Shown piece by piece: positions 6,571 to 63,660 of a stretch of DNA of 64,000 nt. The notes beneath the pieces were generated by a model. The model was not told the origin of the DNA, ran no database searches, and saw only the letters and a program-made list of their open reading frames with translations. Made by a program: the position numbers and the translations under genes. How positions within the stretch are numbered: the first letter of the stretch is position 1; every line of letters begins with the position of its first letter. The stretch comes from Bispira polyomma. Its lineage: Eukaryota. The DNA lies in the NCBI GenBank assembly GCA_965649765.1, contig OZ287749.1, forward strand, positions 1,178,001-1,242,000, written 5' to 3'.

Positions 6571-6991
6571 AATATTTGTTTAACTAGTCTCAATAATTCA
6601 ATAACAAGAAAAAATAAAAGCCTGTTATATTACTCTATATTAAAAATTGCAAGTAGATGTTGACTCTGAAAGCTGGGATGATTCTGATAAAAAACGAGTG
6701 TGCCGTCTTCCTTTTATACAGTCTGCTCTCGCCCCCATTTCCCTCCCGAGTGATCGCTTTCACTCCAGAGTTCTCTTTTGTTCCGCCCAACCTATTGTTA
6801 ATCTTTCCGAGTTATCTTTACAGTCGAGGCGTCTTTGCGATTTATCGGCCACTTCTCCCGAGTTATCCTTGTGATATTCCAGAGTTATCTTTACCATCGC
6901 GGCATTTCTAAAAACCTATCCTTAACATTTGACAGGATAACTCGAGAGAAGTAGACGATAACTTGTGATGCTCCCGACCAATCGGGACGTA

Positions 6992-12371: not shown

Positions 12372-13438
12372 CTAAAGAACAAGACATATAAAATATACTG
12401 CTGGGAAAGTTATAGAGCATATTTCCAGACATTCTACATTAACAAGGATAGTATTGTTATAACAAAGGGGAGTCATGAAGGGGAAGTGCTAAGTCTGTCA
12501 CAGAACCAACTGTTTAGTTTTTCTTGATATGAATCATAGCAGTAAGTAGCAGTAACAGATTGGCATATTAATTTACCCATCAGGGCTGAGAGCAGTTAAT
12601 GGTATTTGTTGACCTTGGCCCTGCGATCTAGTTATTCTTTTCTAAAAAAATGGATGTATATTTTTAAGTGTGTTTTAAGTGTGTTTATAGTTTAGAGTCA
12701 AGATAGGGTAATTTGGCATCTTTTTTGTAACTAAAATATGATATTTTCACATACTATTTGACCAGTTTCAAAAGTTTATAAGTGAGTTGAAATATGAATT
12801 TGAGCAAAATGAGCAAGCTGTACAAAGTTATAAGTTTTCAGTATTTGTGCTTGACACATCATCATTTCCTGGGCTGATACTGACTATGGTTACAACTGAA
12901 ATGGCCAAATAATTTGAACATATAAAATAAGTACCTCAGAATAATATATGCTACTGAATGGTAATTAGCACCACATTGCTTTATCTTGGAGATATTAGTT
13001 TCTATTTAAGGGCCTAAAATGCAAAGAATAAAACACATCAGTAATGTGTAACAATTGTACATTGTTTTTAAAATATATTTTATGTTATAAAAGTGAGAAA
13101 ATTGTTGCATTTTGTTTTTATAAAGAGAATGTGACAGTGATTTGTAGCACATGATGCCATTGCTATAAAAAAAAACAAATCATGAAAATGGTTTGGATTA
13201 ACTTACTTTTCAATATTACTATTATTTATAACTTTTTTAGATTACTATTATTACACAGGTATTCATGGTAACGGCCAGGTTATACTAATCTGTTTTGTTT
13301 TGAAGCACTAAGCTATGGAATTATACATGGATTTCACGAATATAATATTATTTTAACTATACAGAAATAGTTATCTATTTCAAATATATTTATATCTGGT
13401 GTCATTAATACTACACATTTTGTTCTGTCAGCACTGAC

Positions 13439-13743
13439 CTTGTTCGCTAATGCCAAGCTCCCATCGCTGTGTATATAAGATATTGTGACCATGTCGCTCC
13501 TTCGGACAACAAGCTTGACCTGCTGTATTATATTTATGGTGTATCCATCACTTAGGACCAACAAAAGCTTATCCTTTGGTGACATTATAAGAAAACTCTG
13601 TGATCCAAACAAGGCACTTGACAAGTCATACTTTGGAGGTCTAAAGGGGGAATCACTGGCAAATGATCCGAAAGCATGAAGGGTAAAGTATTTATCTTTA
13701 GTATTTGCATCCATGATGACCATGCCATAAGGGCTGGGACATT
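13439..13743 (-). CDS. Host gene exon, repeat domain 4 first half (CPSPYG..PPKYDLSSALFGS..LANK)
   Basis: catacag acceptor, gtcagt donor, 305 nt, phase 1 to 0; paralogous and equal in length to exon 14965-15269. Confidence 0.88.
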
Positions 13744-13967
13744 CTGTATGTATTAAAAAACAACAGGTAAGAATTATTGCAGAACATTTCAATTATATTC
13801 CAGGTTGATTTAAACCAATATTTTTATATCACTATAATCTATTCAACTCGGGTGATGGTAAAATTACTAATTATTTTGGTAAAGTGTTAACACATTTCTT
13901 AATATCTTTGTTGGAATCTTCTTTGTTGGAATCTTCTATTACAAAGCTACTGATGTTTGGTACTCAC

Positions 13968-14106: not shown

Positions 14107-14964
14107 CTAAATTAAACAGAACATTAACATAATCAGTTACTTCTGTAATTAGATCTGACAAATTTTAATTATGTTGTTATTTAACTTCCATTTTAAATAA
14201 ATCTACATTACTTTCGTTAAACATACTTTCACTCTCAAACGATGTAACAGAGGTATTCCAGTCTGTACAAGGATAATTGAAACTATTTTAAATTACACAA
14301 AATTATGCACGCATAGCAGGAGTAAGGATTTACGACAATTGGTGTCGTAAATTGTTCTCCTCCATAATAATACATAAGAACGAAACTACAATACTTCTTT
14401 GATGTTCGATATTTTAATTGATTATGGTATTTTTGTAAACAGTAGTGACTAAGATTTCATTTAGGTTCAAAAACCCTTTTCAACACACCTTTTGCCATAG
14501 CGTGATAGCATAGCATGCAAGTTAGTCAAGGAGGCAAACAGAATAGGGTAGTTAGTCAAGGTGTTCTATTCTGTAAACCACTATAAATAATGTAGTAAAA
14601 CTTTGAACATGTCAATTACTGCTGATTATTACTTTAAATAATGAATTAGCATTTGATGCATGTAGAGATAGTTTCACATGGTTATATGCAAATTACATGA
14701 CAAACATAATCAGAATTTATCAACCCCCAATTTTGGCGCCAAATGGGTCAACACAATGATCAGTAGAAACCTTGGTAAAATGAGGACGTAAATAATCAAA
14801 GTTTTCATTCAGTTTGATGTTTTTGTAACTGTGGATTTGTGAAAATTATGGGCTAGCCGGGGAATTACAATCGGTTAAAACATTTTTATGTTTACCAACA
14901 TATGGTAACTTATAGCTCATATTGTATATCACTTAGGGAAATTAATAATTCTTGAAGTACTTAC

Positions 14965-15269
14965 TGATGTCTTCAATGCTACTTCCCCATGTTTGTATAT
15001 ATAATACACATGGAGTTTTGGACTACCACAGATTGAAAATGTCAGTTTCCTCAGAACTGACTCTATACAGAACGCTTTTATTGATATGATCAATTTATCC
15101 TTGTATGATAACATCAGTGAACGTCCAGATCCATACAATGCATTAGACAAGTCATATTTTGGTGGATCAAATGGAGAACCACTTCCAAATGGACCCATTC
15201 CAGCCAAAGTGAAGTATTTATTTACAGTCTTGGCTTCTACTATAACTAATTCATTCTGGTTTAGGCACT
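14965..15269 (-). CDS. Host gene exon, repeat domain 3 first half (CLNQNE..PPKYDLSNALYGS..LKTS)
   Basis: gtacag acceptor, gtaagt donor, 305 nt, phase 1 to 0, open. Confidence 0.88.
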
Positions 15270-15831
15270 CTGTACAAATAGTGAGAAGACAAGCATCAAT
15301 TGACATTCATACAATACACGTCCAATGTTACCAGTTTTTGATAAACACCATTGTATTGTCCAAGGTATATATAGAATGTTTCCAATATTCATGTATTATG
15401 TCAACAGTTTTGGGAAATACACCATCACTCCTTGAGGGAGAAATCAGAAATGGGAAACATGAGGTTTAACATGCTTGGAATTTATTAAAAATTTTGTTAA
15501 AACACAAGTTACCTTGTTTTACATGCAGTACAGTTTGTCACACATCAATTGTTACAACTAACATCCATTGTTATCTGTTGTACATTTATTATAAGACTAT
15601 ACATCATGCTATTAGTTATTCCGTCTGTTAACATCGAGATTAATAATTACTAACCACTACATTATCATTACTAAATGACTAACCTTAAACCTATAGCTGT
15701 ATAAAGTGTCAACTTGTTTACAACTTAACTAAATGCGTTCGCCTGATGAAATGTATATGTATTCCTTGGCATAGCATGTATACAGTATACCAATATATTA
15801 TTACCCAATGGGTTTAATTCAAAGTATTTTT

Positions 15832-16088
15832 GGGGGGCAGCGGTGGCCTAGTGGTTAGCAAGCATTGCGCTTCACAATCACTGGTCTCTCACCTCTGGGC
15901 GGCTTGAGTTTGAATCCCGTCAATACCTATGTGGGAAAAGTGGTAGTTTCTTACTGTGGGCTGCTGGTTTCAGTGCAGAACCTTGATCAACTGTATGCAG
16001 TGTTTCCTCCAGCATTTCCAACTACCTGTCCCAATATAACCTAAACAGGTACTAGAGTGGACGTTAAATATCCCAATTAAAAAAAAAA
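15832..16088 (+). mobile_element. Full-length tRNA-derived SINE with A-tail and TSD
   Basis: A box tggcctagtgg, B-box-like gagtttgaatccc, gtttcctcc core, A-rich tail; aaagtattttt on both flanks. Confidence 0.85.
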
Positions 16089-16678
16089 GTATTTTTGAAT
16101 GTCGACAGATTCTTTGGGATGAAGGGTGGGGCAAAAAGGCCACCCATGTGTGTCCCCCAACTTCACAACTGAGTTGAAAACCTGCCTATACTGTATTTTT
16201 ACACCCAATTTTGGCGCCAAATGGGTCTATTCTATTGACCCCTCTCTGTGGTAATAACTTTCACTCACATTTTGTCATGTCCTGGTTGATGCAATAATTC
16301 ACCCATGACTTTACAAGGGCATGTCTTTACCTTCAGCCCACACAATATTAAACACCTTGGTTTGTTCTTTCTAAGGCCAAGCCGAATTATACACCATAAA
16401 AGGCTATACAAATGATTAGACTGTTTTACATAAACTCCCTATAGACTGAACCGGTGTGCTATTGTACATACACATCACCCAGCACAGTTGAAAACCTGAT
16501 TCTAGATATAGTCTCACATTCCCAAAATCCAAAAGAAAAGTGGCAAACTGCCACAGTGCCTGTCACAGCAGAGAAAAGCAACAAAGATTGGAGCACTACA
16601 AGTGTTTATTAAGATACTAAAATTTTGTTAGAATAGATACGTGACACAATTTTTGCCCTCAAAGCCAAAGAAGCAATA

Positions 16679-17652
16679 TTAGAAAGTAGAATTTATTAAC
16701 GTTTGGAAAGTGGAGGGGATAACGCAAGACTGTGCAGATTCTCGTTGAATGTTAGCCCACACAGCATTGCTTTTCCATACACCATGCAATTTTATATTTT
16801 CCAGTGGTACATTAGCATCGTATGCAATAGTGGCTGCTGACCTTCTGAAATTGTGAAATCCATGACCCTGTAAGGGTATGCCACAAATCCTAAGAACTGA
16901 GGCAAGCCTTTTTCTAACCATAGACTGTGTAACTAGATGGAACTGAGAGTCCACAAACAGTGGATCAGAAGATGGGAGTTTAATTGAACCCAATAAAGCC
17001 CCAATTGCCTAAACTGGACACATAAGGGGGTTATCAACCCTTGGAAGAATGATGACACAAGTCTGATCCACTGATTGCAGGTTCTTGGCCCATTTAATAC
17101 GTAAATGAATGCGAGGTGGTACCAATACCACATCACGCCTACATATCAGTCTAGAATAATCCAAGTTACTTTGTGAAGGAGGTTCCACATTTGAAATACG
17201 CAAAAATGCATAAAAAGCTGTCAGAAACAGAGCTCTGTATGTTAGTGTGCTTTCAAACACTGCACACGCTTGAGAGATTGATTTTATATCTTGTAATGAA
17301 AAGATGCCTTTCGGCCTAACCACTCGTGGGCCATTTATCATAATTGACCTGAGAAACTTCTTGACCATGTGATGGTCCCATGGTTGTACATTCAAATTAA
17401 ACTTTATACTATAATATTTGACTGCTGAAGCATAATTGTTTATAACCCTATAGGAGAGGCCCTGCGAAACCCAAAATTCTAAAAATAACAACACCACAGA
17501 CACATTAGTTTCTAATGGCAAAGTGTGTCTAACCAAAAACCCAATAAACAGTCTAAATTGTTTCAAATATATTCCACTAGTAGCTGGTCGCACTGCGTTG
17601 GCTGCCCTATCTAAAGCCACGTTCAACAGTGGAACACAGCCTGGAGGTACAC
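16679..17652 (-). pseudogene. Tyrosine recombinase of element 1 (no ATG; preceded by a splice acceptor)
   Basis: Catalytic R (FLRISN), H-x-x-R (HNFRR), HGxW; a stop near 17009 splits the ORF; acceptor gttctag at 17653-17654. Confidence 0.88.
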
Positions 17653-17718
17653 CTAGAACATATTATACAAACACATCATGTCATTCTCAATATGCTCATG
17701 TATTTTTTGGTTAAACAC

Positions 17719-19637
17719 TTAAAATAACTTATCTTTACCTAATCTGGACAAGGCATCTGCCTGATTATTAAGTTTTCCTGCTATATGTTTAACAGTAAGG
17801 TTTATGTTATGTCTAGTGACCTCGTGCCATATGTTCCTAATACACAGTTCCATAAACACGTCCCTAGTTGCCCCCCTGTTAACTACGTGGACCGCCGCCT
17901 CGTTGTCACATCTGACACACACGTCTCTATTCCTCAAGTAAGAGCCCCAAATTCTCAATGCCAACAGAATATTGTACAACTCGTACTGACTAATTGCTTG
18001 TGTATCTATGAGTTCTCGTGGGACAGGAACAGAATATACACATTTTCCCCAGATACCCCCCATCCTAACGAGAGTTGAATACACAAAAATTTGTTCCTGC
18101 TCCTGAGTCCTTCTAACATAGACTGAGCCATTAAATGTGGTTAGGAATTTGAACCATGCAATATCCAAGTAGTATCCCTGTTCTGGGGTAAACTTTTTGT
18201 CCATCCTATGTTCTCGAAGAGTGGAGAGCAACCTATTCATGAAAACTCATGATCCTGGAACACAGCGCGAGACATAAAGGAGTCCATGAGTATACTGGCA
18301 TGGCAAATGCTCATAATCTCACACAGCTTGTCCTTACAAATACTAAAGGTAAAATTATCAACGTTAACTGTAATACCTGATATAGTCAGTGATTTAGTGG
18401 GAGCTACTACTTTATTCGGGTTAAGTGGGAGACCCAAACCCTGAATTATTTTTAGTAACGCCTGAAAGGCCTCATTTGCTTCGTCCTTGTGTACACAAGC
18501 ATAAAAGTTGTCTATGTAGTTGTGGACAACAAAGCCACGCTTACTCATTAAGTATCTGACAAAATCCGTCAATCTCTAAAAAATGGCAGTGCCATTAACG
18601 GCCCCAAATGCCAAATTTTGATCAAGATAATAAAGCTCTCGCCACTTTATTCCTAGATGCACTGCCTCTCCGGGATAAATTTTTACATTTCTGAAAGCAC
18701 GCGAGATGTCAGCCTTGAACAATCTTGCATTTTTCCCATATTGCTTCAAAGCTGGTATTGGAGAATCCAAATTTGGCAAACGCAAACTAAAATGTTCTCC
18801 TAAATAGCTGTCTCTAATAGTGGCCTTGTAAACCGAATTTTCCCCATATGAGAGATCTAGAATGACTCTTCTAGAGCTACCCTCTTTTGGCCTTGTCATT
18901 AAAGGAGCCCAAGTGTAATTTTTATGTGGTATATCAGAAAAAGGACCCAATAATGCTTCATGCTTGAGTTCAGTTTCAATATACTTTTGGACATCATGAG
19001 GAAAAACATTTGCAGAAGAGTGGTTAGTGGTAGTGGCTGTGGTGACCTGTTTGTCCTTGTCTAGCCCTAAAGGAAAACCATATTGTAAGAGATCAAGAAT
19101 GGCCTTGTCATGATACCCCTCCATATGCCTTTCCCAATACTCTATATTTAATGTAGTATGCAAAGGAAGTCTAGCCTTCTGGAAGTTATACACTCCTGAC
19201 TTTATGACTCTGTCTACAATCTCACAATACTGCTTTGTGTCACGTGAGTCTAACAACACACCCTGAGGGCTAGAAATGACATCTGTACAACCAGAAATAA
19301 AACCAACTTTTCTATCAAACAAGTCTTGCTTTTTATGGAACACAACTGTGTTCAACTCAGGTTGCTTAATTAAATCAGCGTCTTTCTTAAAACTATTGTC
19401 TGTAGACTGTCTTTGTTGATTAATGTCCTGTGAGTTTTGTACTGAAACACTAAACTTAACTAAAGGTTGTCCTACAAAATCTAGTATGTTAATATCTTTT
19501 CTATTGCCATAAGGGCCACGTCTATGCATCTGTTGAACTGTAAGAAAACTGGCTCGCACACAGACTTGACACCAGCAATGCTTGTGTCCGACTCTCAGGC
19601 AGCCACACTCTGTGTGTGTCGCGAGACCCTGCTTCAC
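17719..19637 (-). pseudogene. Reverse transcriptase / RNase H of element 1
   Basis: ORFs 18576-19637, 18237-18572 and 17719-18240 with DIRS/Ngaro-type RT and RNase H motifs. Confidence 0.9.
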
Positions 19638-19919
19638 GTCGCCGAGAACAGTCCCCTGCTGCCAAGTCTGCTGATGATCATAGCCTGTGTCTCCAGGTTC
19701 CCGAGATGTCAGTCTATGAAGTCGTCCAGCCAGTGAACAGACCCCTTTACCCTATAGAGAGTAATTTTTAACCAAATTGTCTTCATAAGAGGAAGACGAT
19801 AACCCACCATCACTGTTTATAAAGTCACCCTTGTAAGTATCAGAGCTGTTCTTATCTATTAAAGTCATTGAGAAATGAGAACGTGTGCGCGAGTTCTCAT
19901 GGCAAGGGCCCCTTCAGGC

Positions 19920-21080
19920 CTATTCTGCTGACATACGCTTCTTGTTGTTGCACTGAGCCTCAGTATGTTGGTTATCCCTCTTCAGCGACTTAGCACAGTA
20001 GGGACAAACGTGTTTAAAATAGGTCACACCTGTGGAGTCATGATGGTCTTGGTTATGGATACAGCTACCCTCCTTGAAATATTTACACACTACTCGCTTT
20101 GCCTTCCCAGTTGTTGACGTGTTGTCTGCCTTGGCTTTCTGTCCCATGGTGACAGATCCACTGGGAATATGTGAGTCTGTTATCCACAAATGTTGCTGTT
20201 GCATCCCATTTTTCCGCCTCCTCTTCGATCATATGCATTGAGACGGCAAACGCCCCCCTTGCTATGGTCCAAGAAAGGTTTTCGGCTAATTGGACAGTTT
20301 CCATCAGTTCATTCAGCATTGCTCTAGTATCTGTGTTATCCTGCACCTCTTGTGTGTTTTTTAAAACACCTGTGACAAATTGTCCTAAAGATAGCTCATC
20401 AAAAGTCATTCTCTTCCTCGAGGGTCCCACCAGACACGCTTCGTTAGGCCACCTCAGAGCCGGATTAGCATTGGGTGTATCAGTCGTGTTGTACCTGCCA
20501 CTTTTCTTTCTACGGGAATTACCTTGTGCAAACTCCTGCCTGACTCTAGACTTCAGAACAGCTATTCTTTCGTCGACAAGACGTTGCACCATGGGGTTCT
20601 GCCTAAGTGCTTCCAAAGAATCCACTGCTGTAAATGCTAATCCTCCCTGGGCAGGCACCCCTTGGGCCTGGGTGGTAGCAGCCACTACCTCTTGTGCTTG
20701 TGGCAACATCCCTTGAGTGGTTGCCATTGCTGGTTGCATGATAGTCTGTGTCGTCACTGGTCCTACGCTTGGTACTATTTGCTGCATCATCAGATGTGGT
20801 GTAGCTGTAAGATGCGTATTAGCCACAGGTCCCGAGTCACACAGTTTAACTGGTCGACCTTGAGAGTGACAGTATAGCAAGATGGAATTCTGGTTGACAT
20901 CTGTAAATTGTTTGTTTTCTGAAGTTGATCCTGTAAATGGAATGGAGTGGCACAGGGCCCAAATGTTGGCTCCCACTCATGAGTTCCCATAGCAGTATCT
21001 CCCAGTGATCCCCCATCCATCAAAGGTGCTGCTACTAGCGAGGAAGTGTATGGTTTAATCCTCTTTATTTTTGGTAACAT
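19920..21080 (-). pseudogene. ORF1/gag of element 1
   Basis: KKSGR..WP..FDELSLGQFV.G segment and C-terminal CKYFKEGSC..H..HVCPYC..H..C cluster; frameshifted. Confidence 0.8.
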
Positions 21081-21119
21081 TTCAAAACTAATTATGATGC
21101 AGGTACTCTGATGCACTGC

Positions 21120-21166
21120 CTTATATACTAGGAGAACTCCTGTGATTGGCCTGGGCGGCCTATTGG
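21120..21166 (-). promoter_or_regulatory. Probable internal Pol II promoter of element 1 (two CCAAT boxes plus TATA)
   Basis: Minus strand ccaatag..ccaatca..agtatataagg just upstream of gag; the same agtatataagg occurs upstream of gag in element 2 (about 61587-61597). Confidence 0.5.
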
Positions 21167-21502
21167 AACAGTCCATCATGTGGATTAGTTCATTTTTGCT
21201 CACTGACCCATATATGGCCTGACCTAACCAGTCAAGCCTTACAATAGGGCAACAGTTCACCCTGTGGTATAATACATTTGTGACTGATACATAATTAAAC
21301 CGTTAACTCTTGTATAATTATCCCCATTGCCAGATATCTTCATTAACAAATTTCTTTTTCACAAAGGGTATATTATTTCAAAGTAGTTTCAATACCAGGG
21401 TGTTCACAATCAATTTACTTCAACCTAAACTTACCAGGATTTGCAAGATCTTTTAGAATTATAGTTAAATACAAATATCTGTTCATAAGACAAAGGTTTT
21501 AC

Positions 21503-21619
21503 CTGGTGTTGGGGTTGTCTTTGTAGCCTCTGTAGTTGTAAGGCTGACTGGGGATGGACTGGGTGATGGGGTGGGAGTTGGAGTTGGTGTCAGTGTTGGA
21601 GAAGGTGTTGGATATTCCG
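21503..21619 (-). CDS. Host gene exon, Pro/Thr/Ser-rich mucin-like linker (EYPTPSPTLTPTPTPTPSPSPSPVSLTTTEATKTTPTP)
   Basis: ttatag acceptor, gtaaaa donor, 117 nt, phase 1 to 1; final G plus AG of exon 15269 gives Glu before the domain Cys. Confidence 0.85.
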
Positions 21620-23399
21620 CTATAATATACATGCATATATTAAGAACTAAGTCATCCAAGATATTGTATCTTTTTCAAAACTTGAATGAGTATAATATAG
21701 TATGATTAAATTGCATGTACAATTGAAAAATTCAAATTAAACACACAGGCTCAATAAATATGTACAATGTTTGTCTTTTTTTGGCTGAAATGTCTGACTG
21801 ATTGAATGGAGTCAGCCACTTGATAGTATCTTTATATGCCAAAGTATACGATTTATTGTTAACACTAGATTTTAAAAAAGCAGACAAGAAAAATAGCTAT
21901 TCCAAGCAGTAAACTGGATTGAAACATTGACACAACAATCTTTTACTTCATGAACTTGATTTTATGTATTTGGTCCTTTGAAACCAGATAAAATTTTGCC
22001 AGCATTAGGTGGTATACTTTATGTTAGAAAAAACAGTTTACTGTTTGAAAATTTTTGCACATCCAAAAGGGGTTATGGGATATATATATATATATATATA
22101 AACACACATAATTTTGTACACACATATATATATATAGTCGTCATACTTACCCAAGCATGCTATAATATGATAGCTTTTGAGAACGACCTCAATTGTGCAA
22201 TTAGTTGTGGGCTCCCAAATTAACCTTAGGCTGCTTGTGGCTCGAGCTTTTGGGTAACGAAATGTAGTTCGGGTCAGCCTGTCTCTACATGGAAATGTTA
22301 CCTACAATGTAATAATAGGGATAAATTTAATTTGTAAGATATTATTATAAAATGACATGCCCACCTGATGAATAACAGCTATTGCACAAGCATCAACCTT
22401 TTGTCCGTGAACATTTTCTGGTGTTGCCCCAATTCTTGTAAACTCTGGAGACAGAGAGGTGGGCAAGAGTCTGTGGTTCATAGGCAGTTCTTAAATGGGG
22501 TTCAACTGAAATGTTTCCATTTTATTAAGGAAACATGCTCTCAACTGTTTAACAATGGCTAAAATTACTACTCAATAGAAGAAGGGTGATTTACATGGAG
22601 GGGGAAAGATATCTGTATTGCAGTATATCACAGATGACTCACTGCATATATATCTCTAACTAATAAAAGTGCCTGAAGCTCCCTAATGGCATCCTGAGTG
22701 ACTAGTCAAAAAGGTATGGGTATCCAGTTACCAGCTAAACTAGAATACTTCTGGTGGAGGGGACTTCCGAATCGGCACAACTACTATAGACAGATTTAAA
22801 TTGTTAACTTCACCACCAGCAGCATACCCAATCTGTCAAATTGAAAATTGAACAACAAAAGGAGACACTTTGGCATTATAGCTTTCATCTGTTCTATGGC
22901 GGCCAGTTAACATATTTATTTTATACATAATAATACCACTAACAAAGAATGCAATATATTTGTTGCAAAATAAATACTGACAGTCACCACGCATCATATG
23001 TTCAAATATGAAGCAATATTTGAGGCCTCTAAATAGGAATAGTATGTTTGCATACACAACTATAACATACATGTAATTAACAACAGATTAACACAATTTA
23101 AAATAATTTCTAGGAGAATCTGTTTGTCGTTGCAATGTAATCTTGTATATAAGTTATTGCAATCAAATTTGTCTCGTTGCTATATTAGCATTGGCCCCTC
23201 AATAGGCTTGACCATGTTACCTCAAACTTGTTACACAGTTCTATTCTGAGATCCTAATACAATGGGCAGTTTAAAAGTAATGATAAGCATTTTCTGTTAA
23301 AGCAGTGCAGCAGCCCTTGCTGTCAGGTATGATATTGAAATTAAACAGATCTGAATTTAACCAGCTACAATTCGATCGCAATTTTTATTGTATATTAGA

Positions 23400-25900
23400 C
23401 AGTTTCCTGTCGCCACTACTATACCATTATAGTATGTTATATTATATTCGCGAATTTTTGTTTTGGGAAAAAGGAATCTGCTAAACAAGCTTGTTTTTGT
23501 CCTGATATTCATAACTTTATTAGCTTTCATAAGCAGTAGTTGGATCTTTCTGTGTTTAGAATATCGGGCTTCATCTTGTATTATCTTGTGAAGTGTAACA
23601 TTACGCAATATTTGTCTGCGTTTTTTTAAAGAGTCCCAGCTCAGCTCATTATACACAATCTCTGTTGGTGTCCGGATAATGGCACCACTTACAATCCTAG
23701 CTGCCCTTTTTTGCACCTTTTTTGCAGTGTTAAACCTAAGTGTTTGTGATGGGACACATTTTCTTAAAATCTGATTATTGAACTGTATGTCAGGTAAAGC
23801 TTGTCGGTACTTTTTGAGAGTACAATACATTGACTTCGTTTTTTAGGACTAAATGTTACCAACCATTGCTTTGCCCACTGGTGTATACAGTCTAAATCGT
23901 TATTTAGAGAACTACTACTTCTGACAAGATCGTCATCAATTGTGATATAAAGCATAGTACTGTCAGCGAACAATCTAATTTCATTACTTATAGTATCAGT
24001 CAGATCATTTATATATACGAGAAATAGTAACGGACCAAACACTGATCCTTGTGGGACGCCAGCCTTTATATTCCCAAGTAACGAGGCCTCACCATTTATC
24101 ACTACCCGTTGTTTTCTATCAGACACATCATTTTCAAACCATGCTAACAGTGAATTTTTGATACCAATTTTTATTAACTTATATATTAGTCCTGCATCCC
24201 AGACTTTATCAAATGCTTTTGAGATGTGACATAATACTATTATTAAATCCTTATTCTTATCTAATGCTTCTGCAAAAAAATGATACAAATGGGTTAATTG
24301 ATATACGGTTGAATCACTGTGATACATGTATTTGAAAACAACCTGTTCAAACATTTTACCTACACAGCTTAGCAAAGAAATTGGTCTGTAATTCGTAACC
24401 AAATAAGGATCACCTTTTTTATATAAAGGAACAACATGTGCTTTCTTCCAACTTTAAGGAAACTACTTTAACTGTAGTGACATATTAAATAAGCGACAAA
24501 GTGAAGGTACTATAGAATCGTCCCCTCCTTTAGCATTAACGGGCTAATGATATCAGGGCCACTAGCCTTACCAATGTCAATCAATTTTATTAAATCTAGA
24601 ACATCAGTTTCACTGGCTGTTATGTTTGAAAGCGTTTAAGGTGTCCTTTGATGAGTTGCTATCCTCATTTCTTGATCATTCAACTTATGTGTGAAATAAA
24701 AAAAAATAACTGTTCAGCGTTGAACTTGTTGTGAGTGATAATGTTGTTGCCATAATTCATTGGATAGCTGGTTGCTTTATTTCTCCCTAAAAAGGAGTTG
24801 ACTATGTGCCACCAATTTTTAGATGACTGTGGCTTATCAGCTTGGTATTTAAGATTTTGTTTGTATGATTCGTTCCTATGATTCTTTTGCTTCTACAATT
24901 TCCCTGTTGTAATTGTTACGAATTTGCTTGTAATTTGACCAATAATAGTCATTATTATTCCTTTTGGCCAATCTAAAAGCATGATCTCTCTTCTATTTAA
25001 GTTTTCTCAAGAAGTTATTGAAAAAAGGTTTGGCACTAGGCCTTATTTCAGCCAATTTATTTGGTATGCAGCTTTGTGCAATATTTAAGTTTGAGCCCAT
25101 TTTGTTACTGTTGTATCAACATCACCATCAACAAAGCAAGCCTCCCAGTCTGGGTTCATAAAAGAGTTTCTAAAGTCATCAGAATTTGCCCTTTCATAAT
25201 CCCAAACTAGGCGTTTATACGTTTTCTGTTTCGTATATTTTAAGTTTACTTCTAGACTTATCAACATATGATCAGAATTTAGTACTGGTTCCTTTACAGA
25301 TGCGTTGATCACTTTTTCCTCAAAATTAGTGATGAACTGATCCAATACAGTTTGAGTGGTTGGCGTTATTCTAGTTGAAAAGTCCACTAGGATAGTAACA
25401 TTTTTTGTTTGTGCAAACATGCTTAAGTAATCACCATTTATGATATTCAGAGTTAAAGTCTCCTAGAGATTATGTCCAAGATGTCACCAGATTTTGTGTT
25501 GTCAACTGAATTCTGTAAAATCCCAGAAATTAATTTGAGAACTTGGTGGTCGATTACAAACTGCGGCCAAGAATTTTTTGTTAAACGTTTGCACTTCTAG
25601 CCACACCATTTCAAGATTGTCATCTTCTAGATCATCCCGATGAACATATGCAAGATCATCCGATATATATGCCACTACACCGCCCCATGCTCTATTAACT
25701 ATATCTCTCCTAACTATTTCTTGAAAGTTAAGCAGGCTCAAAGAGAAGTCAATATTTCGTTCATTACTTAAATTAGTTTCAGTAAGGCAAATAATCTCGT
25801 ACTTTGAAACTACATTATCTGATATATATTCTGATTTGTTTAAACTCTGTATGTTTGAATGAAAAATTTTAATGATGTTACAGACTGAGATTCAACATTG
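23400..25900 (-). mobile_element. CR1-group LINE ORF2 remnant (APE endonuclease plus RT)
   Basis: GGVVAYI, NRPPSS, SDH endonuclease motifs; NYRPISLL, ISKAFDKV, GVPQGSVFGPLLF, FADS RT motifs; many stops and frameshifts. Confidence 0.9.
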
Positions 25901-57973: not shown

Positions 57974-60900
57974 CAGTAATGTTTGTACCAAAATGTGATA
58001 TTAGTGAGGAGAGTGATGAGGTCAGCGGTCCATTGAGAAGGATTTCGTTGGAGAGTGAAGACATATGAACAAGAATTCTACTTGTAATACAACTTTTATT
58101 AAAACCAATAACATGTTTGGGATGACACTACATTTGTTAAAACACTAAGGGTTAGAACTACCATGACAAGTTACTCGGACACTTATATAAACTTATTTAC
58201 ATAGCTAAGTTTGCTTAATTTTAACTTGTACAGCCATTTACTTTTTAAGTTGCCATGCTAACTTTAAGTTATTCATTTGTAAGTGAAATCAGCTTTTGGT
58301 TAAGGTTGCCTTAGATTAAGCCTCATGTTGAGGTGACCTTAATCCAAGTTTAAGCATACCAACTAATTGAGGTAGGTAAACCTGTGTTTAGGATGACTTA
58401 AAGTGCTTCCAGAGCTAGACCCAACCTTAATACTTTACATTACACTAGCTGCCTTTGGAGTGGAGTTTAGATATGCCCATATGGCATCACTACGCCAGTT
58501 GCCGTGTACTTTTTCTAAAGACAAGTTGTTGTTAAAAGCCAAGGCAGCAGGTTTCAAGCCCATGCTGATTATCAGTGTTTTGAATATGCTTCGAGCCTTT
58601 GAAGGACAATTTCTTATTGATATAAATTTGGAATAATGGCTGGTGAGCAGTCAATCTAAGATACTTTATCATAGCTTTCAATGCGGCAACTGTGCAGAGT
58701 ATTGAGCCTGTCAGTTCTGGCAACTGAACCACATAATACGCCCCAGACTTTTGCATGTTCTTAGCATGCTTTGATATAAAATGAGCACCTGGCTGACCAA
58801 ATACAATGACTCTCACCATTGGAAGTCTAGACTTATCATACATAGACACCACTGGAGATACCACTAAGGCCAATCTAAACAATCCAAAAAACGCTACCAA
58901 GAACAACGCTTGAAACACAGGAGCATTAGGAATCACTTTTGCTTTCTCCAATAAAGTTTTCAACATTTCTACAGACACAACACCCTTGATATTAATCAAC
59001 AGAGGGGCATTTACTTTTACAGATCTAATCAAAAGTTGTAATTTCTTGCTCTTGAGAGCAGCAATGAGCCATTTAAAAAGAGTAAAATAGTGACTAAGTA
59101 CAGCTACCACATTTTGTAATGAAAATGCTCTTAGTCCTTGTTGACACAGCAGTTCTATGTAAGCTAGCACTGCTAACTCTGTGTAAGGTTTATCGATGTC
59201 CAATGCTACTATCACTGCCAGGAATTGTCTAAAACGTGAAGCAAAAGCTGTGGAAGTCCTGGGTCGCAGGGCAGCAGGGATTCATCTATCTGCCTTGTCC
59301 ATCAAAGCTTGAAGACACTGGCTACCTACAAGTACAGCAGATGGAGAGCAGTATTTTGCTAACAACCGCCCAGGACAGGTAGCCCACACCAGGGGGTAGT
59401 TGCAAGCTGGGGACCAGCACCACACGGGCCCGGATTCGGACGTACATGGTGGCATGCAAGCTGTCTGGGTATAAGTTGCTTAACCTTTAGGTTGTGCACT
59501 TAGTTTTCTAGATGGACCAGTCGGGTTCTAATAGTTGTGGGTCGAACGACCACCAGTCACATCTGTATAAACTAAAGGGATTGTGAGTATTCATATTGTA
59601 ATTTAACCAACGCGAGAGTATATCTGCATAAACATTTGCTTCTACTTGTATGTGACAAAATGTAATGTCAATATTATATGTTAGCAGTATTGTACGAGTG
59701 CACGCTATTAAAAAAGAATCCCTAATTTTGTAAGAATTTAATGCGTTGATAACTGCAAGGTTATCACACCAAATTATAACACGCTTTTTGGCCAAAAAAG
59801 TTGCCCAACTTCGGACTGACAGCATTAAATTTGCCATTTTGAAGTGAACTATGGTAAACCATACACGCAAGTGTTCAGGTATAACCAGTCTATACGCTTT
59901 TTTTCCATACTTTGTCCCCACTGCAAACAAAGAGGCATCTACATAAATATGCTCAGCCATGGTAGCATCTTTACTATGAATTTCGACCGAACCATTAAAT
60001 TTTTGAAGAAAAACATTAAACCAATTTACATCACGATGAAATTCATCTGAAAGTTTTGTACTGCCAATTTTGTGGGTAGCCCTTAGGGCTTGCAAGATAC
60101 GATTACCAAAAAGCCTAGACGGCTTTATGCACCTGTGTATGTACAGCAATTTTCCTGTAAGTTTTTGTAATTGATTCTTTGTTGCAGTGGTCTTATAGTC
60201 CCATTTTTTGCACATCTCTTTCACCTGGTCTATTTTTCATCTGGTATTGTAAGCTTTCCCAATTTTTTACATGTACACATATGCCCATACAGATAACCTC
60301 ATTATTAGGGCTTTCCAATATGGACATACTTATGGGCAGACTCAATTTTTCAAGAAGGACCAACAGTTAATTATATGCACTTTGCGCATGGGCAGGCTCT
60401 TCTATGTCAATAAAATCCTTGATATAGTTTATAAGCCAGTGCTTCTGACTATTCATAAGATATCTCATACTATCCGTGACTACTTGGCATAATCCGGATC
60501 CCATCTTAAAACCAAAGGGAAGTGCAATATCATTAAAACGCTGATTTTTCCACTGCAGTCCCAAGACTGAGTAATCATATGGATCTATCCTCAAAAAGCT
60601 CTCTTTCTAAAAGCTCTCTGGAGATCAATTTTGTATTTGAGGGCCTTACTACCCAAGTCTCTAATTCTCTGGACAATGGCATCCACGGTGTGATATGATA
60701 GCTTATAGTTGAGGCCAAGGTTAATACTTACATTTATCAACTAAATCACTGTTATTCCAGTCTAATTTGCCTTTCTCTATTTCTGTAGGAATCAAAGCAT
60801 AGGCCTTTTTAGCCATACGCATAGACAGCTCGATTGCGTCTTGCATAAGATTAGTTAAGATTGGGTATCGTTTTCTTCCATTACACCAAATAACAGACCT

Positions 60901-61826
60901 CAAAACCATTGGGGGGGGGGGGGGGGGGGGGTTAACTCCGCAATAATCGTGGGGACAAGCTATGGTTTTTTGATTACATGGCTACCTGCCCAAAAACGTC
61001 CTGATTTAATTGATTTGTCTGAACTCTTACCATGAGTATCAGTCCTTGAAGTGTGCTGGTATGCTCTCAATCTTTTTTCCACTTCCGCTTGAATTCTCGA
61101 GTCTGTTTTCAGGATGTCCGTGGAGGTAAGTTTAGTTAGTCCCCTTCTGCTGGTCTCCGACTTCGGTGAACTGCTTGCAGACGGCTGAGTGTTTGATACT
61201 TCTTTCAATACTAATTTCTCTTCTTGTTCTTGAAGGCGCTTATCCTGTGCATCTAATCTTTTCCTCACTGATTTTAGACAATAATACCGCGTCCAACTGT
61301 ACACCAACACTCCCTGCACCGGCATTTTCTTCTGTATCTATTACCTCAGCAATTTTATAACAAGTTGTTTTACCACTATTGTCAGTATCTAGTGATTTAC
61401 TCTTGTTTCTCAGCATTTTTAACGGATGACAGAGAAGTACAAAGTCTAAGTCCCCCTTTTTCAGTCTTTGAACCCCACCACGATTTTAGAAAACTCTTTC
61501 TTTAGAAGACTTTTTCTTTCTCTATGACCCCAATGCAAATCACCACGTACACAGCTAGCAAACTCCTCGACTGCCTAGCTGCTAGACCTTATATACTGAA
61601 GAAAATTGCGGAAAAACGTCATAAAGTTCATGTACAGTTAGCTCAACAGGCCCAGACACCAGATGAGTTAATTACCAAAGAACAATATTGATGAATATTG
61701 GTTTATACTTAGTACGGGTAGATATGAAATAAATGTTTCCTCATGTACTGACTTTTAATGCTACTATGTACGCATATATGTTCACATCTATTACATTAGT
61801 CACCTGCTATGCTACAAACATTACTG
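57974..61826 (-). mobile_element. Ngaro-like tyrosine-recombinase retrotransposon 2, internally deleted; ends tentative
   Basis: gag KSGR (about 61000); RT IDLQRAF/ALPFG; RNase H YVDAS, WCDNLAV, ANVYADILSR; YR GLFRL, HGNWRSDA; late gag and the 5' half of RT are missing near 60740. Confidence 0.88.
58410..59325 (-). pseudogene. Tyrosine recombinase of element 2 (preceded by a splice acceptor)
   Basis: ORF 58532-59215 plus upstream LRPRT..F..RF, homologous to the element 1 YR; acceptor tacttgtag at 59326-59327. Confidence 0.85.
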
Positions 61827-62889: not shown

Positions 62890-63143
62890 CTCTTTCTGAT
62901 AAATTGTAATTTCATCTGAGTTTACCAACATAACTGTAATATTGGCAGCTTTTTTTACTTCAAAGGACAATGTCAACAAATCAAATGGTATGAAACCATT
63001 GTGTATTTTTAGCAGAGTTTCACATTTTAGGCGTCTACCATCTGTGCTAACCAAGTCATACCATAAATCTTCATCCACTTCATCAGAGTCAATAGCCGTG
63101 TGAAAAGTTGACACAATAGCACTTTCATCATAGTCAGGACAAA
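62890..63143 (-). CDS. Host gene exon, repeat domain 1 first half (CPDYDESA..LSFEVKKAANITVMLVNSDEITIYQKE)
   Basis: ttgtag acceptor, gtatgt donor, 254 nt, phase 1 to 0, open; joins exon 57790. Confidence 0.75.
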
Positions 63144-63164
63144 CTACAACATTTTATGTATAGT

Positions 63165-63660
63165 TGCGTTAACAGGTTAGTGTCATAGGCCAACTGACAT
63201 ATTTTGTATTCGTAATGTTTTACCTTTATTCCAGAGATCAATTTATTTTTCCGTTTGTTAATTGCCAAAACTTCAGCCACCAATATAAAAAGCTGAGCGG
63301 ATATGGGGCAGCCCTGCCTTGTTCCTCGGCTTTGATTAAAATACTGAGAGAAGTTACCATTGTTACTGACACATGATTGATTATCCTTGAGCAAGATTTG
63401 AATCCATTTAAATTGAAATTCTCACAATAATTGTAATGTTGCAAACATTTTATCAAAAAAGGCCGTTCTAAACTGTCAAAGGCTTTTTTGAAGTCAACTA
63501 ACAGTAAATATCCGTTTAAGTTATTTAGTTCTGCATATGTGAGAATATCTTATATAATTCTTACATGTATCTACCCTTAATATATCCCACTTGATCATTA
63601 TTTATCAGTTTTGGTGTTACTTGTTGAAGCTTGTTTGCCAAAGCCTTGGTCAAAATTGAT
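63165..63660 (-). mobile_element. L1/Tx1-type LINE RT fragment
   Basis: KALANKL..DQVGYIKGR, DFKKAFDSL, RGTRQGCPIS..LF, QLAYDT. Confidence 0.85.

Follow-up and report, generated by a model that had tools for sequence, protein, structure and literature searches.

Ngaro elements, according to the available parts of the published accounts (PMC9210276, PMC4157794, PMC3266345, PMC3783388, PMC8547959), encode gag, a reverse transcriptase (RT) with RNase H and a tyrosine recombinase (YR) on one strand, carry split direct repeats in the order A1...B1 A2 B2 and have no methyltransferase; their three open reading frames (ORFs) are drawn there as unspliced, and no route of YR expression is given. A text search for 'splic' in the available parts of some of these descriptions gave no match. 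The present analysis concerns an element of this kind on the minus strand of a 64,000-nt stretch of the Bispira polyomma genome (assembly GCA_965649765.1, contig OZ287749.1, positions 1,178,001 to 1,242,000), hereafter the window, together with its relatives elsewhere in the genome. These elements share gene order, repeats and lack of a methyltransferase with published Ngaro, but differ in having no conserved YR ATG, conserved splice sites, and a pol that follows a conserved recoding-type context. With a probability of roughly 85%, the sequence evidence points to a spliced RNA encoding a fusion of the N-terminal part of Gag with the recombinase (Gag-N::YR), while the unspliced RNA would provide the genome, Gag and a recoded Gag-Pol. 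Such splicing is likely to be a family-wide trait and not a property of the dead copy in the window.

The copy in the window (Table 1) has lost its gag start and shows a gag frame change near 20910, pol stops at 19916, 19754, 18578, 18249 and 17721, and a YR stop at 17011. Because the gag start is lost and the frames are broken, it is unable to make the fusion, and the splicing claim therefore concerns the family rather than this single copy. The splice geometry put forward in a preliminary description of the window was recomputed from the sequence and came out identical: the donor at 20522 and the acceptor AG at 17654-17653 are both in phase 1 and bound a predicted intron of 2870 nt, which closes with TGTTCTAG at 17653, and the join is in frame, the G on each side of the junction being a first codon base in the gag frame and in the YR frame. 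Upstream of the acceptor, the YR frame meets a stop after four codons, and downstream its first ATG is codon 96, in agreement with the earlier remark that the YR has no ATG at its 5' end. The predicted intron has the features of a U2-type intron, namely a GT donor in a consensus context, a YAG acceptor with a T-rich tract, and compatible phase.

Conservation was assessed across the 1.04 Gb, 75-contig genome in two lineages whose recombinases are about 28-34% identical. For lineage 1, a protein search of the genome gave 128 matches and, with 60 more regions fetched from these, the set came to 81 loci; 72 were usable (four had no match over the landmark, and five were dropped for indels, insertions or being the wrong element). 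Grouping at 80% DNA identity divided the usable loci into 20 families, with representatives down to 41% YR identity. For lineage 2, 40 regions were fetched from 150 matches and, with the lineage 2 element of the window, gave 41 copies in 19 families.

In 38 of the 39 family representatives of the two lineages, a TnYAG motif precedes the YR landmark by a constant 20-21 codons, against a background of 1% per position. In lineage 1 it lies exactly 63 nt before the R-P-x-T landmark in 19/20 representatives, in an ungapped alignment of all 20 whose acceptor columns are invariant for T at -4, for C or T at -2 and for the A, with the G present in 19; in lineage 2 it lies 60 nt before the landmark in 19/19. 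The previous AG upstream is at a median distance of ~38 nt, and a candidate branch-point match (YTRAY) occurs at -45 to -12 in 12/20 and 8/19 representatives, compared with 4/20 and 2/19 in a coding control of different composition. Damaged acceptors occur in single copies (L043, L044, L045, L071, L135, L184, L210, L241). In other assemblies, 269 related proteins were collected, at most 59% identical to any family described here (among those scored), and 59 of them extend upstream of the acceptor position and form 49 clusters; the border residues fit NYA/G in 30 of these clusters versus a 16% background, which is indirect evidence, with start calls biasing which borders are visible.

Retention of the acceptor AG merely as the end of the pol stop codon was considered and rejected, since other families uncouple stop and AG. 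In the family of the window copy, the acceptor TAG doubles as the pol stop in less damaged copies, which alone could explain the AG there; for this reason, conservation among close copies (n=20 loci; donor GT in 13/14 mapping copies, acceptor AG in 16/19) is weak evidence. Across lineage 1, the pol stop coincides with the AG in five families, lies 6 nt upstream in 14 (TAA in 11, TGA in two, TAG in one) and 25-26 nt upstream in one, and across most of lineage 2 it lies 8 to 468 nt upstream, with TnYAG persisting in the non-coding spacer. Families 6 and 8-20 of lineage 1 place the pol stop exactly 6 nt before the acceptor G, in a TRATTNYAG-like arrangement, whichever stop codon is used. Downstream of the acceptor, the 21 codons that follow the AG are stop-free in 20/20 lineage 1 representatives, whereas stops interrupt the other frames in 14/20 and 10/20. 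Variation in codons 2-8 is 0.51/0.34/0.73 by codon position, highest at the third. This stop-free frame and third-position variation argue that the codons after the acceptor are coding upstream of any ATG.

The donor coincides with a domain border in Gag, with a conserved helix on one side and the conserved C-terminal domain on the other. Among the families with a locatable donor (16/20 in lineage 1 and 15/19 in lineage 2), the donor glycine codon is GGT in 31/31, versus 8/31 for the neighbouring KSG glycine (pooled Fisher p=3e-10, a value that overstates independence, as the families share ancestry). By lineage, the counts are 16/16 versus 5/16 and 15/15 versus 3/15, and other gag glycine codons are GGT in 93/366 cases (25%) and in 39%, respectively. 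The neighbouring KSG glycine, having the same ancestry, is a fairer control than the p-values. In lineage 1 the donor glycine sits 5-7 codons before KSG, and the base after GGT is A in 14 families and G in two; in lineage 2 base -2 is A in 13/15 although the preceding residue varies among K, P, H, T, S, R and L, and with the protein free at this residue the conservation is at the nucleotide level. Ranked by splice-site weights among all GT sites of its gag frame, the donor comes first in 9/16 families and within the top four in 15/16, and in a more distant lineage 1 clade it reads AAG/GTAAG or AGG/GTAAG, near consensus. Damaged donors are found in single copies (L032, L061, L064). Conservation of the sites and their phase across copies, which the preliminary description had named as a test of its proposal, extends far beyond the needs of the protein in both lineages.

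Pol lies within the predicted intron and would likely be made by recoding of the unspliced RNA, through UAG-G readthrough in lineage 1 and a +1 shift at GUU-stop in lineage 2. Lineage 1 gag terminates at TAG-G, with pol continuing in the same frame, in 19/19 families with the end located (L031-L110), the twentieth family consisting of a single damaged copy. Ten copies keep an open frame from the gag TAG as far as the RT YxDD motif, and in eight of them the first Met lies at codon 16 to 163. In lineage 2 (L209-L248), gag ends in GTT-stop with pol in the +1 frame in 12/13 families, 11 of them counted from the first copy and one being a family whose first copy is frameshifted; the base after the stop is T, C or A. 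As described in the available part of PMC3542737, UAG-G is the type III readthrough context of gammaretroviruses, and a +1 shift at GUU_stop_C occurs in a closterovirus. Lineage 1 resembles the former in its 3' G and in-frame downstream ORF and differs from it in showing no signal of a conserved local hairpin after the UAG, and lineage 2 resembles the latter in its GTT-stop and +1 pol, although the base after the stop is not always C.

In the mechanism proposed here, a single transcript from the A1 repeat would have two fates. Left unspliced, it would serve as genome and as mRNA for Gag and, by occasional readthrough of UAG-G or, in the sister lineage, by the +1 shift at GUU-stop, for Gag-Pol; splicing would remove the Gag C-terminal domain, zinc fingers, RT and RNase H to yield a Gag-N::YR of roughly 500-710 residues. 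The N-terminal coiled coil common to both would co-assemble with full-length Gag, the recombinase would travel with the particle and the cDNA, and splice efficiency would set its amount. Co-assembly through the coiled coil is the least certain step, and we hold it tentatively, at a little under even odds. The Gag N-terminal helix is hydrophobic at 9/12 a/d positions, and its three-copy model scored 0.47, compared with 0.02 for the best of three controls, with contact agreement of at least 93% and a pLDDT of at least 76. The score mark was reached by 21/30 solved pairs, 0/23 single chains and only 7/16 animal pairs, in a calibration on two copies only, and the pass may stem from model memory.

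Several observations weigh against a spliced Gag-N::YR. The pairing of donor with acceptor is one that we infer from phase and from finding no other conserved partner, and some donors are weak, as in family 7, where the site ranks 8 of 99. An ATG occurs within the first 20-21 YR codons in 7/20 lineage 1 and 10/19 lineage 2 families, codon 9 is NTG in 14/20 lineage 1 representatives (7/11 Leu codons, p=0.07), and in family 10 an ATG that overlaps the pol stop lies three codons upstream of the acceptor. Conserved local RNA structure after the gag UAG was not found over 80 nt in 19 copies (mean z +0.35), in a test that covered local hairpins only, not pseudoknots or long-range pairing; a hairpin suspected from family 1 was accordingly dropped, giving no signal across these copies. 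No spliced DNA copy was found in the 78 loci checked upstream of the YR start, a capped sample that overlaps the earlier loci; this fits a packaging signal inside the intron, although by itself it lends that idea no support. Gag-YR fusion proteins were likewise absent from three protein searches, whose matches look like single-exon ORF calls. None was found in a weak search among proteins of 568-2000 residues, and the best 150 representatives and the best 120 of 226 profile matches are all at most 420 residues long. A search of metagenome contigs found no relatives, PDB sequences gave no match, and an Atlas search with Gag returned unnamed clusters only, with a low recognition value.

A real acceptor might instead be joined to another donor, in a 5' leader or in one leader feeding three acceptors, giving a YR with little or no Gag. 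In its favour, locus L037 (family 1) has, near 6910, a T-rich tract with CAG immediately 5' of the gag ATG, a possible acceptor in the 5' untranslated region. Most other families, however, have not retained that AG, and in the least damaged copies gag starts at its own ATG and stays open as far as the donor. The gag TAG-G, tried as an acceptor for pol, was rejected for want of a T tract (T share 0-0.38, compared with 0.44-0.69 for the YR acceptor), and a check of the first 450 nt of pol in 17 copies revealed no conserved acceptor. Moreover, an ATG-less YR depends on an upstream coding exon that ends in phase 1, as the one ending at the mid-gag donor does, and we consider another donor very unlikely.

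The early ATG and NTG codons speak for a YR with its own start, in which an internal promoter or entry site in 3' pol would serve an ATG or near-cognate codon near codon 9, the splice-like sites being by-products of protein constraint. Codon 9 is ATG in 5/20 lineage 1 representatives, and some sister families have an in-frame ATG at YR codon 6-10; codon 9 is nevertheless not start-like in 6/20, and codons 2-8, upstream of it, are under coding constraint. An early in-frame ATG is present in 17/39 families versus 38% expected by chance (p=0.29), so that the early ATG, whose conservation the preliminary description had named as contrary evidence, stands close to chance level. In 13/20 lineage 1 representatives the first Met lies at codon 40 or beyond, inside or past a SAM-like N-terminal domain that occupies residues 20-78 of the recombinase, and a start there would cut this domain. 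An own start also leaves unexplained both the GGT donor codon and the TnYAG motifs in non-coding spacers, and appears highly improbable. Least likely of all is a Gag-Pol-YR polyprotein made by a -1 frameshift, or a stop-restart, at the end of pol, which would suit the -1 frame and short overlap of YR with pol in 19/20 lineage 1 families, the ATGA start-stop overlap of family 10 and the pol of L075 that runs in frame into YR, but is contradicted by overlaps of often just 4-7 nt, by the lack of a slippery heptamer in the overlap in 69/70 scored copies (the exception, L075, being without a pol stop), by a frame relation that varies between copies within family 7 and by lineage 2 pol and YR frames up to 468 nt apart. 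L075 is one of ten family 7 copies, and its loss of the pol stop is probably a private mutation. Altogether, the spliced Gag-N::YR outlined in the preliminary description is supported by the conserved sites and phase and by the lack of a conserved YR ATG.

The element is Ngaro-like (order DIRS), a placement made by structural features alone, not by a tree, with the features taken from the available parts of PMC4157794, PMC9210276 and PMC3266345. Self-comparison of 12 related loci recovered both pairs of the split direct repeats A1...B1 A2 B2 in nine and no repeat pair within the 9.9 kb examined in the other three; in L037 the A repeats are 257 nt long and the B repeats 154 nt, each pair 99% identical. 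The window copy retains only A1 and one B. Together with L036 and L049, it stops at the first B repeat (at 16510 in the window) without A2-B2, the outcome expected of recombination between B1 and B2. The pol of L107 matches PF00078 (RT, 43.2 bits) and PF13456 (RNase H, 32.3 bits), both over the cut-off, whereas these matches are weak in the broken window copy; the L107 recombinase matches PF02899 over the cut-off and PF00589 under it (17.4 versus 27.1 bits). The YR motifs R, K, HxxR, H and Y, which we take to be the catalytic residues, are kept in 17 aligned copies. A domain search of the L107 pol found no methyltransferase family match after RNase H, and with unbroken pol frames ending 34-41 residues past the start of the ADxLS motif there is no room for one. 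Membership of the PAT-like or DIRS1-like groups was rejected, for want of a methyltransferase domain in both cases and, for DIRS1-like elements, of inverted terminal repeats with an internal complementary region; a PAT derivative that has lost its methyltransferase, a case noted in the available part of PMC4157794, may be an alternative placement. Family 18 (L111-L140) is young: 40 or more matches share 98-100% identity along 250 nt, so that it has been recently mobile; families 10 and 16 also include near-identical copies.

The window also holds a second, lineage 2 element (Table 1); in its sister copies the spacer that separates pol from YR is longer by ~250 nt. The element has an in-frame ATG 43 codons 5' of its acceptor, which was set aside as a start, since the frame crosses a ~250-nt deletion that is absent from the sister copies. 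Around the first element, host-gene exons are likely at 21503-21620, 14929-15306 and 13334-13792 on the minus strand, comprising one Pro/Thr-rich and two similar coding stretches, the latter two (14929-15306 and 13334-13792) without a Pfam match; the element would then sit in a host-gene intron in the same orientation, where its acceptor could capture host splicing. A short interspersed nuclear element (SINE)-like repeat of very high copy number (summed depth above 1 million) lies at 15832-16088 and is inserted in several element copies too. ORF fragments at 23357-25891 and 63134-63549 resemble reverse transcriptase and endonuclease of the long interspersed nuclear element type, as judged by eye from the translations.

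Table 1. Features of the two Ngaro-like elements in the window, in window coordinates
Feature	Position	Strand	Remarks
Ngaro-like element, whole	21326-16510	minus	Dead copy
A1 terminal repeat, ~250 nt	21080..21326	minus	Same repeat forms A2 behind B1 in full-length copies
Deletion junction	21075..21080	minus	Relative to L037, ~0.6 kb gone: gag ATG, zinc knuckle, N-terminal coiled coil
Remnant of predicted exon 1 (gag N-terminal half)	20523..21075	minus	Ends in conserved helix before donor
Predicted splice donor CAAG/GTAATT, phase 1	20517..20526	minus	Intron base 1 at 20522, exon end at 20523
KKSGR motif	20494..20508	minus	Conserved C-terminal Gag domain begins here; Gly codon of the motif used as internal control for that of the donor
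Predicted intron, 2870 nt	17653..20522	minus	Contains gag C-terminal half and entire pol
gag stop TAG then G, pol onward in same frame	19919..19922	minus	Predicted readthrough site
pol (RT, RNase H; no methyltransferase)	17653..19919	minus	Five stops and a frame change near 18282
Predicted acceptor, T-rich tract and TAG, phase 1	17653..17668	minus	AG at 17654-17653; 21 codons before YR R-P-x-T landmark
Tyrosine recombinase (YR) exon, 324 codons	16679..17652	minus	Single internal stop at 17011-17009
B repeat, ~150 nt	16510..16658	minus	Window copy stops here; A2 and B2 absent
Second Ngaro-like element	about 58400-61700	minus	Lineage 2, heavily deleted, same donor/acceptor layout
Second element donor CATG/GTAAGA	61024..61034	minus	First intron base 61030; 8 codons before KSGR
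Second element acceptor, ends TTGTAG at 59326	59326..59342	minus	20 codons before YR landmark, well downstream of pol stop

A conserved Gag-N::YR splice would answer how an ATG-less third ORF is expressed and how a recombinase that is not part of Pol reaches the cDNA, neither of which is answered in the available parts of the published Ngaro accounts searched. If correct, the real recombinase would be 170-385 residues longer than annotated, which bears on its study and modelling. No spliced Gag-YR was found in the literature searched, including the available parts of PMC7192593, PMC6681497, PMC9341512 and PMC5633606, a scope outside which lie the founding Ngaro papers, Repbase reports and supplements. 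An effect of ORF1 on Ngaro target choice has been reported in Cafeteria (available part of PMC8547959), and a Gag-N::YR would offer a possible link to it. For Ngaro-type elements broadly, it is conceivable, though we would wager slightly against it, that an intron position held across lineages at 30% protein identity yields a spliced Gag-N::recombinase, packaged by means of its Gag coiled coil, which may also influence the choice of target. Pol would then be made by lineage-specific recoding (UAG readthrough or +1 shift), and the whole would amount to a three-product, retrovirus-like expression scheme not described for the order DIRS.

Spliced subgenomic RNAs are known for retroviral env (PMC10309623) and for the shGAG of Ty1/Copia (PMC5580714), in the available parts of these sources, and in both, as predicted here, the element relies on host splicing of its genomic transcript to set the proportions of its proteins. 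However, Gag is the sole product of Copia splicing, env is a protein of its own, and the integrase is part of Pol in both, unlike in the predicted Gag-N::YR. A closer counterpart than the retroviral env of the preliminary description, and the nearest in the literature searched, is CERV of the Caenorhabditis elegans Gypsy element Cer1, in which, according to the available part of PMC10309623, splicing creates an in-frame fusion of the N-terminal helices of Gag with a 3' ORF. Cer1 and the elements described here would have in common an unspliced RNA that serves as genome and gag-pol mRNA and a Gag-N spliced to the 3' ORF; CERV, however, is an RNA-export factor encoded by five exons in a long terminal repeat element with a DDE integrase, whereas here a single predicted intron would place Gag-N on the integration enzyme itself.

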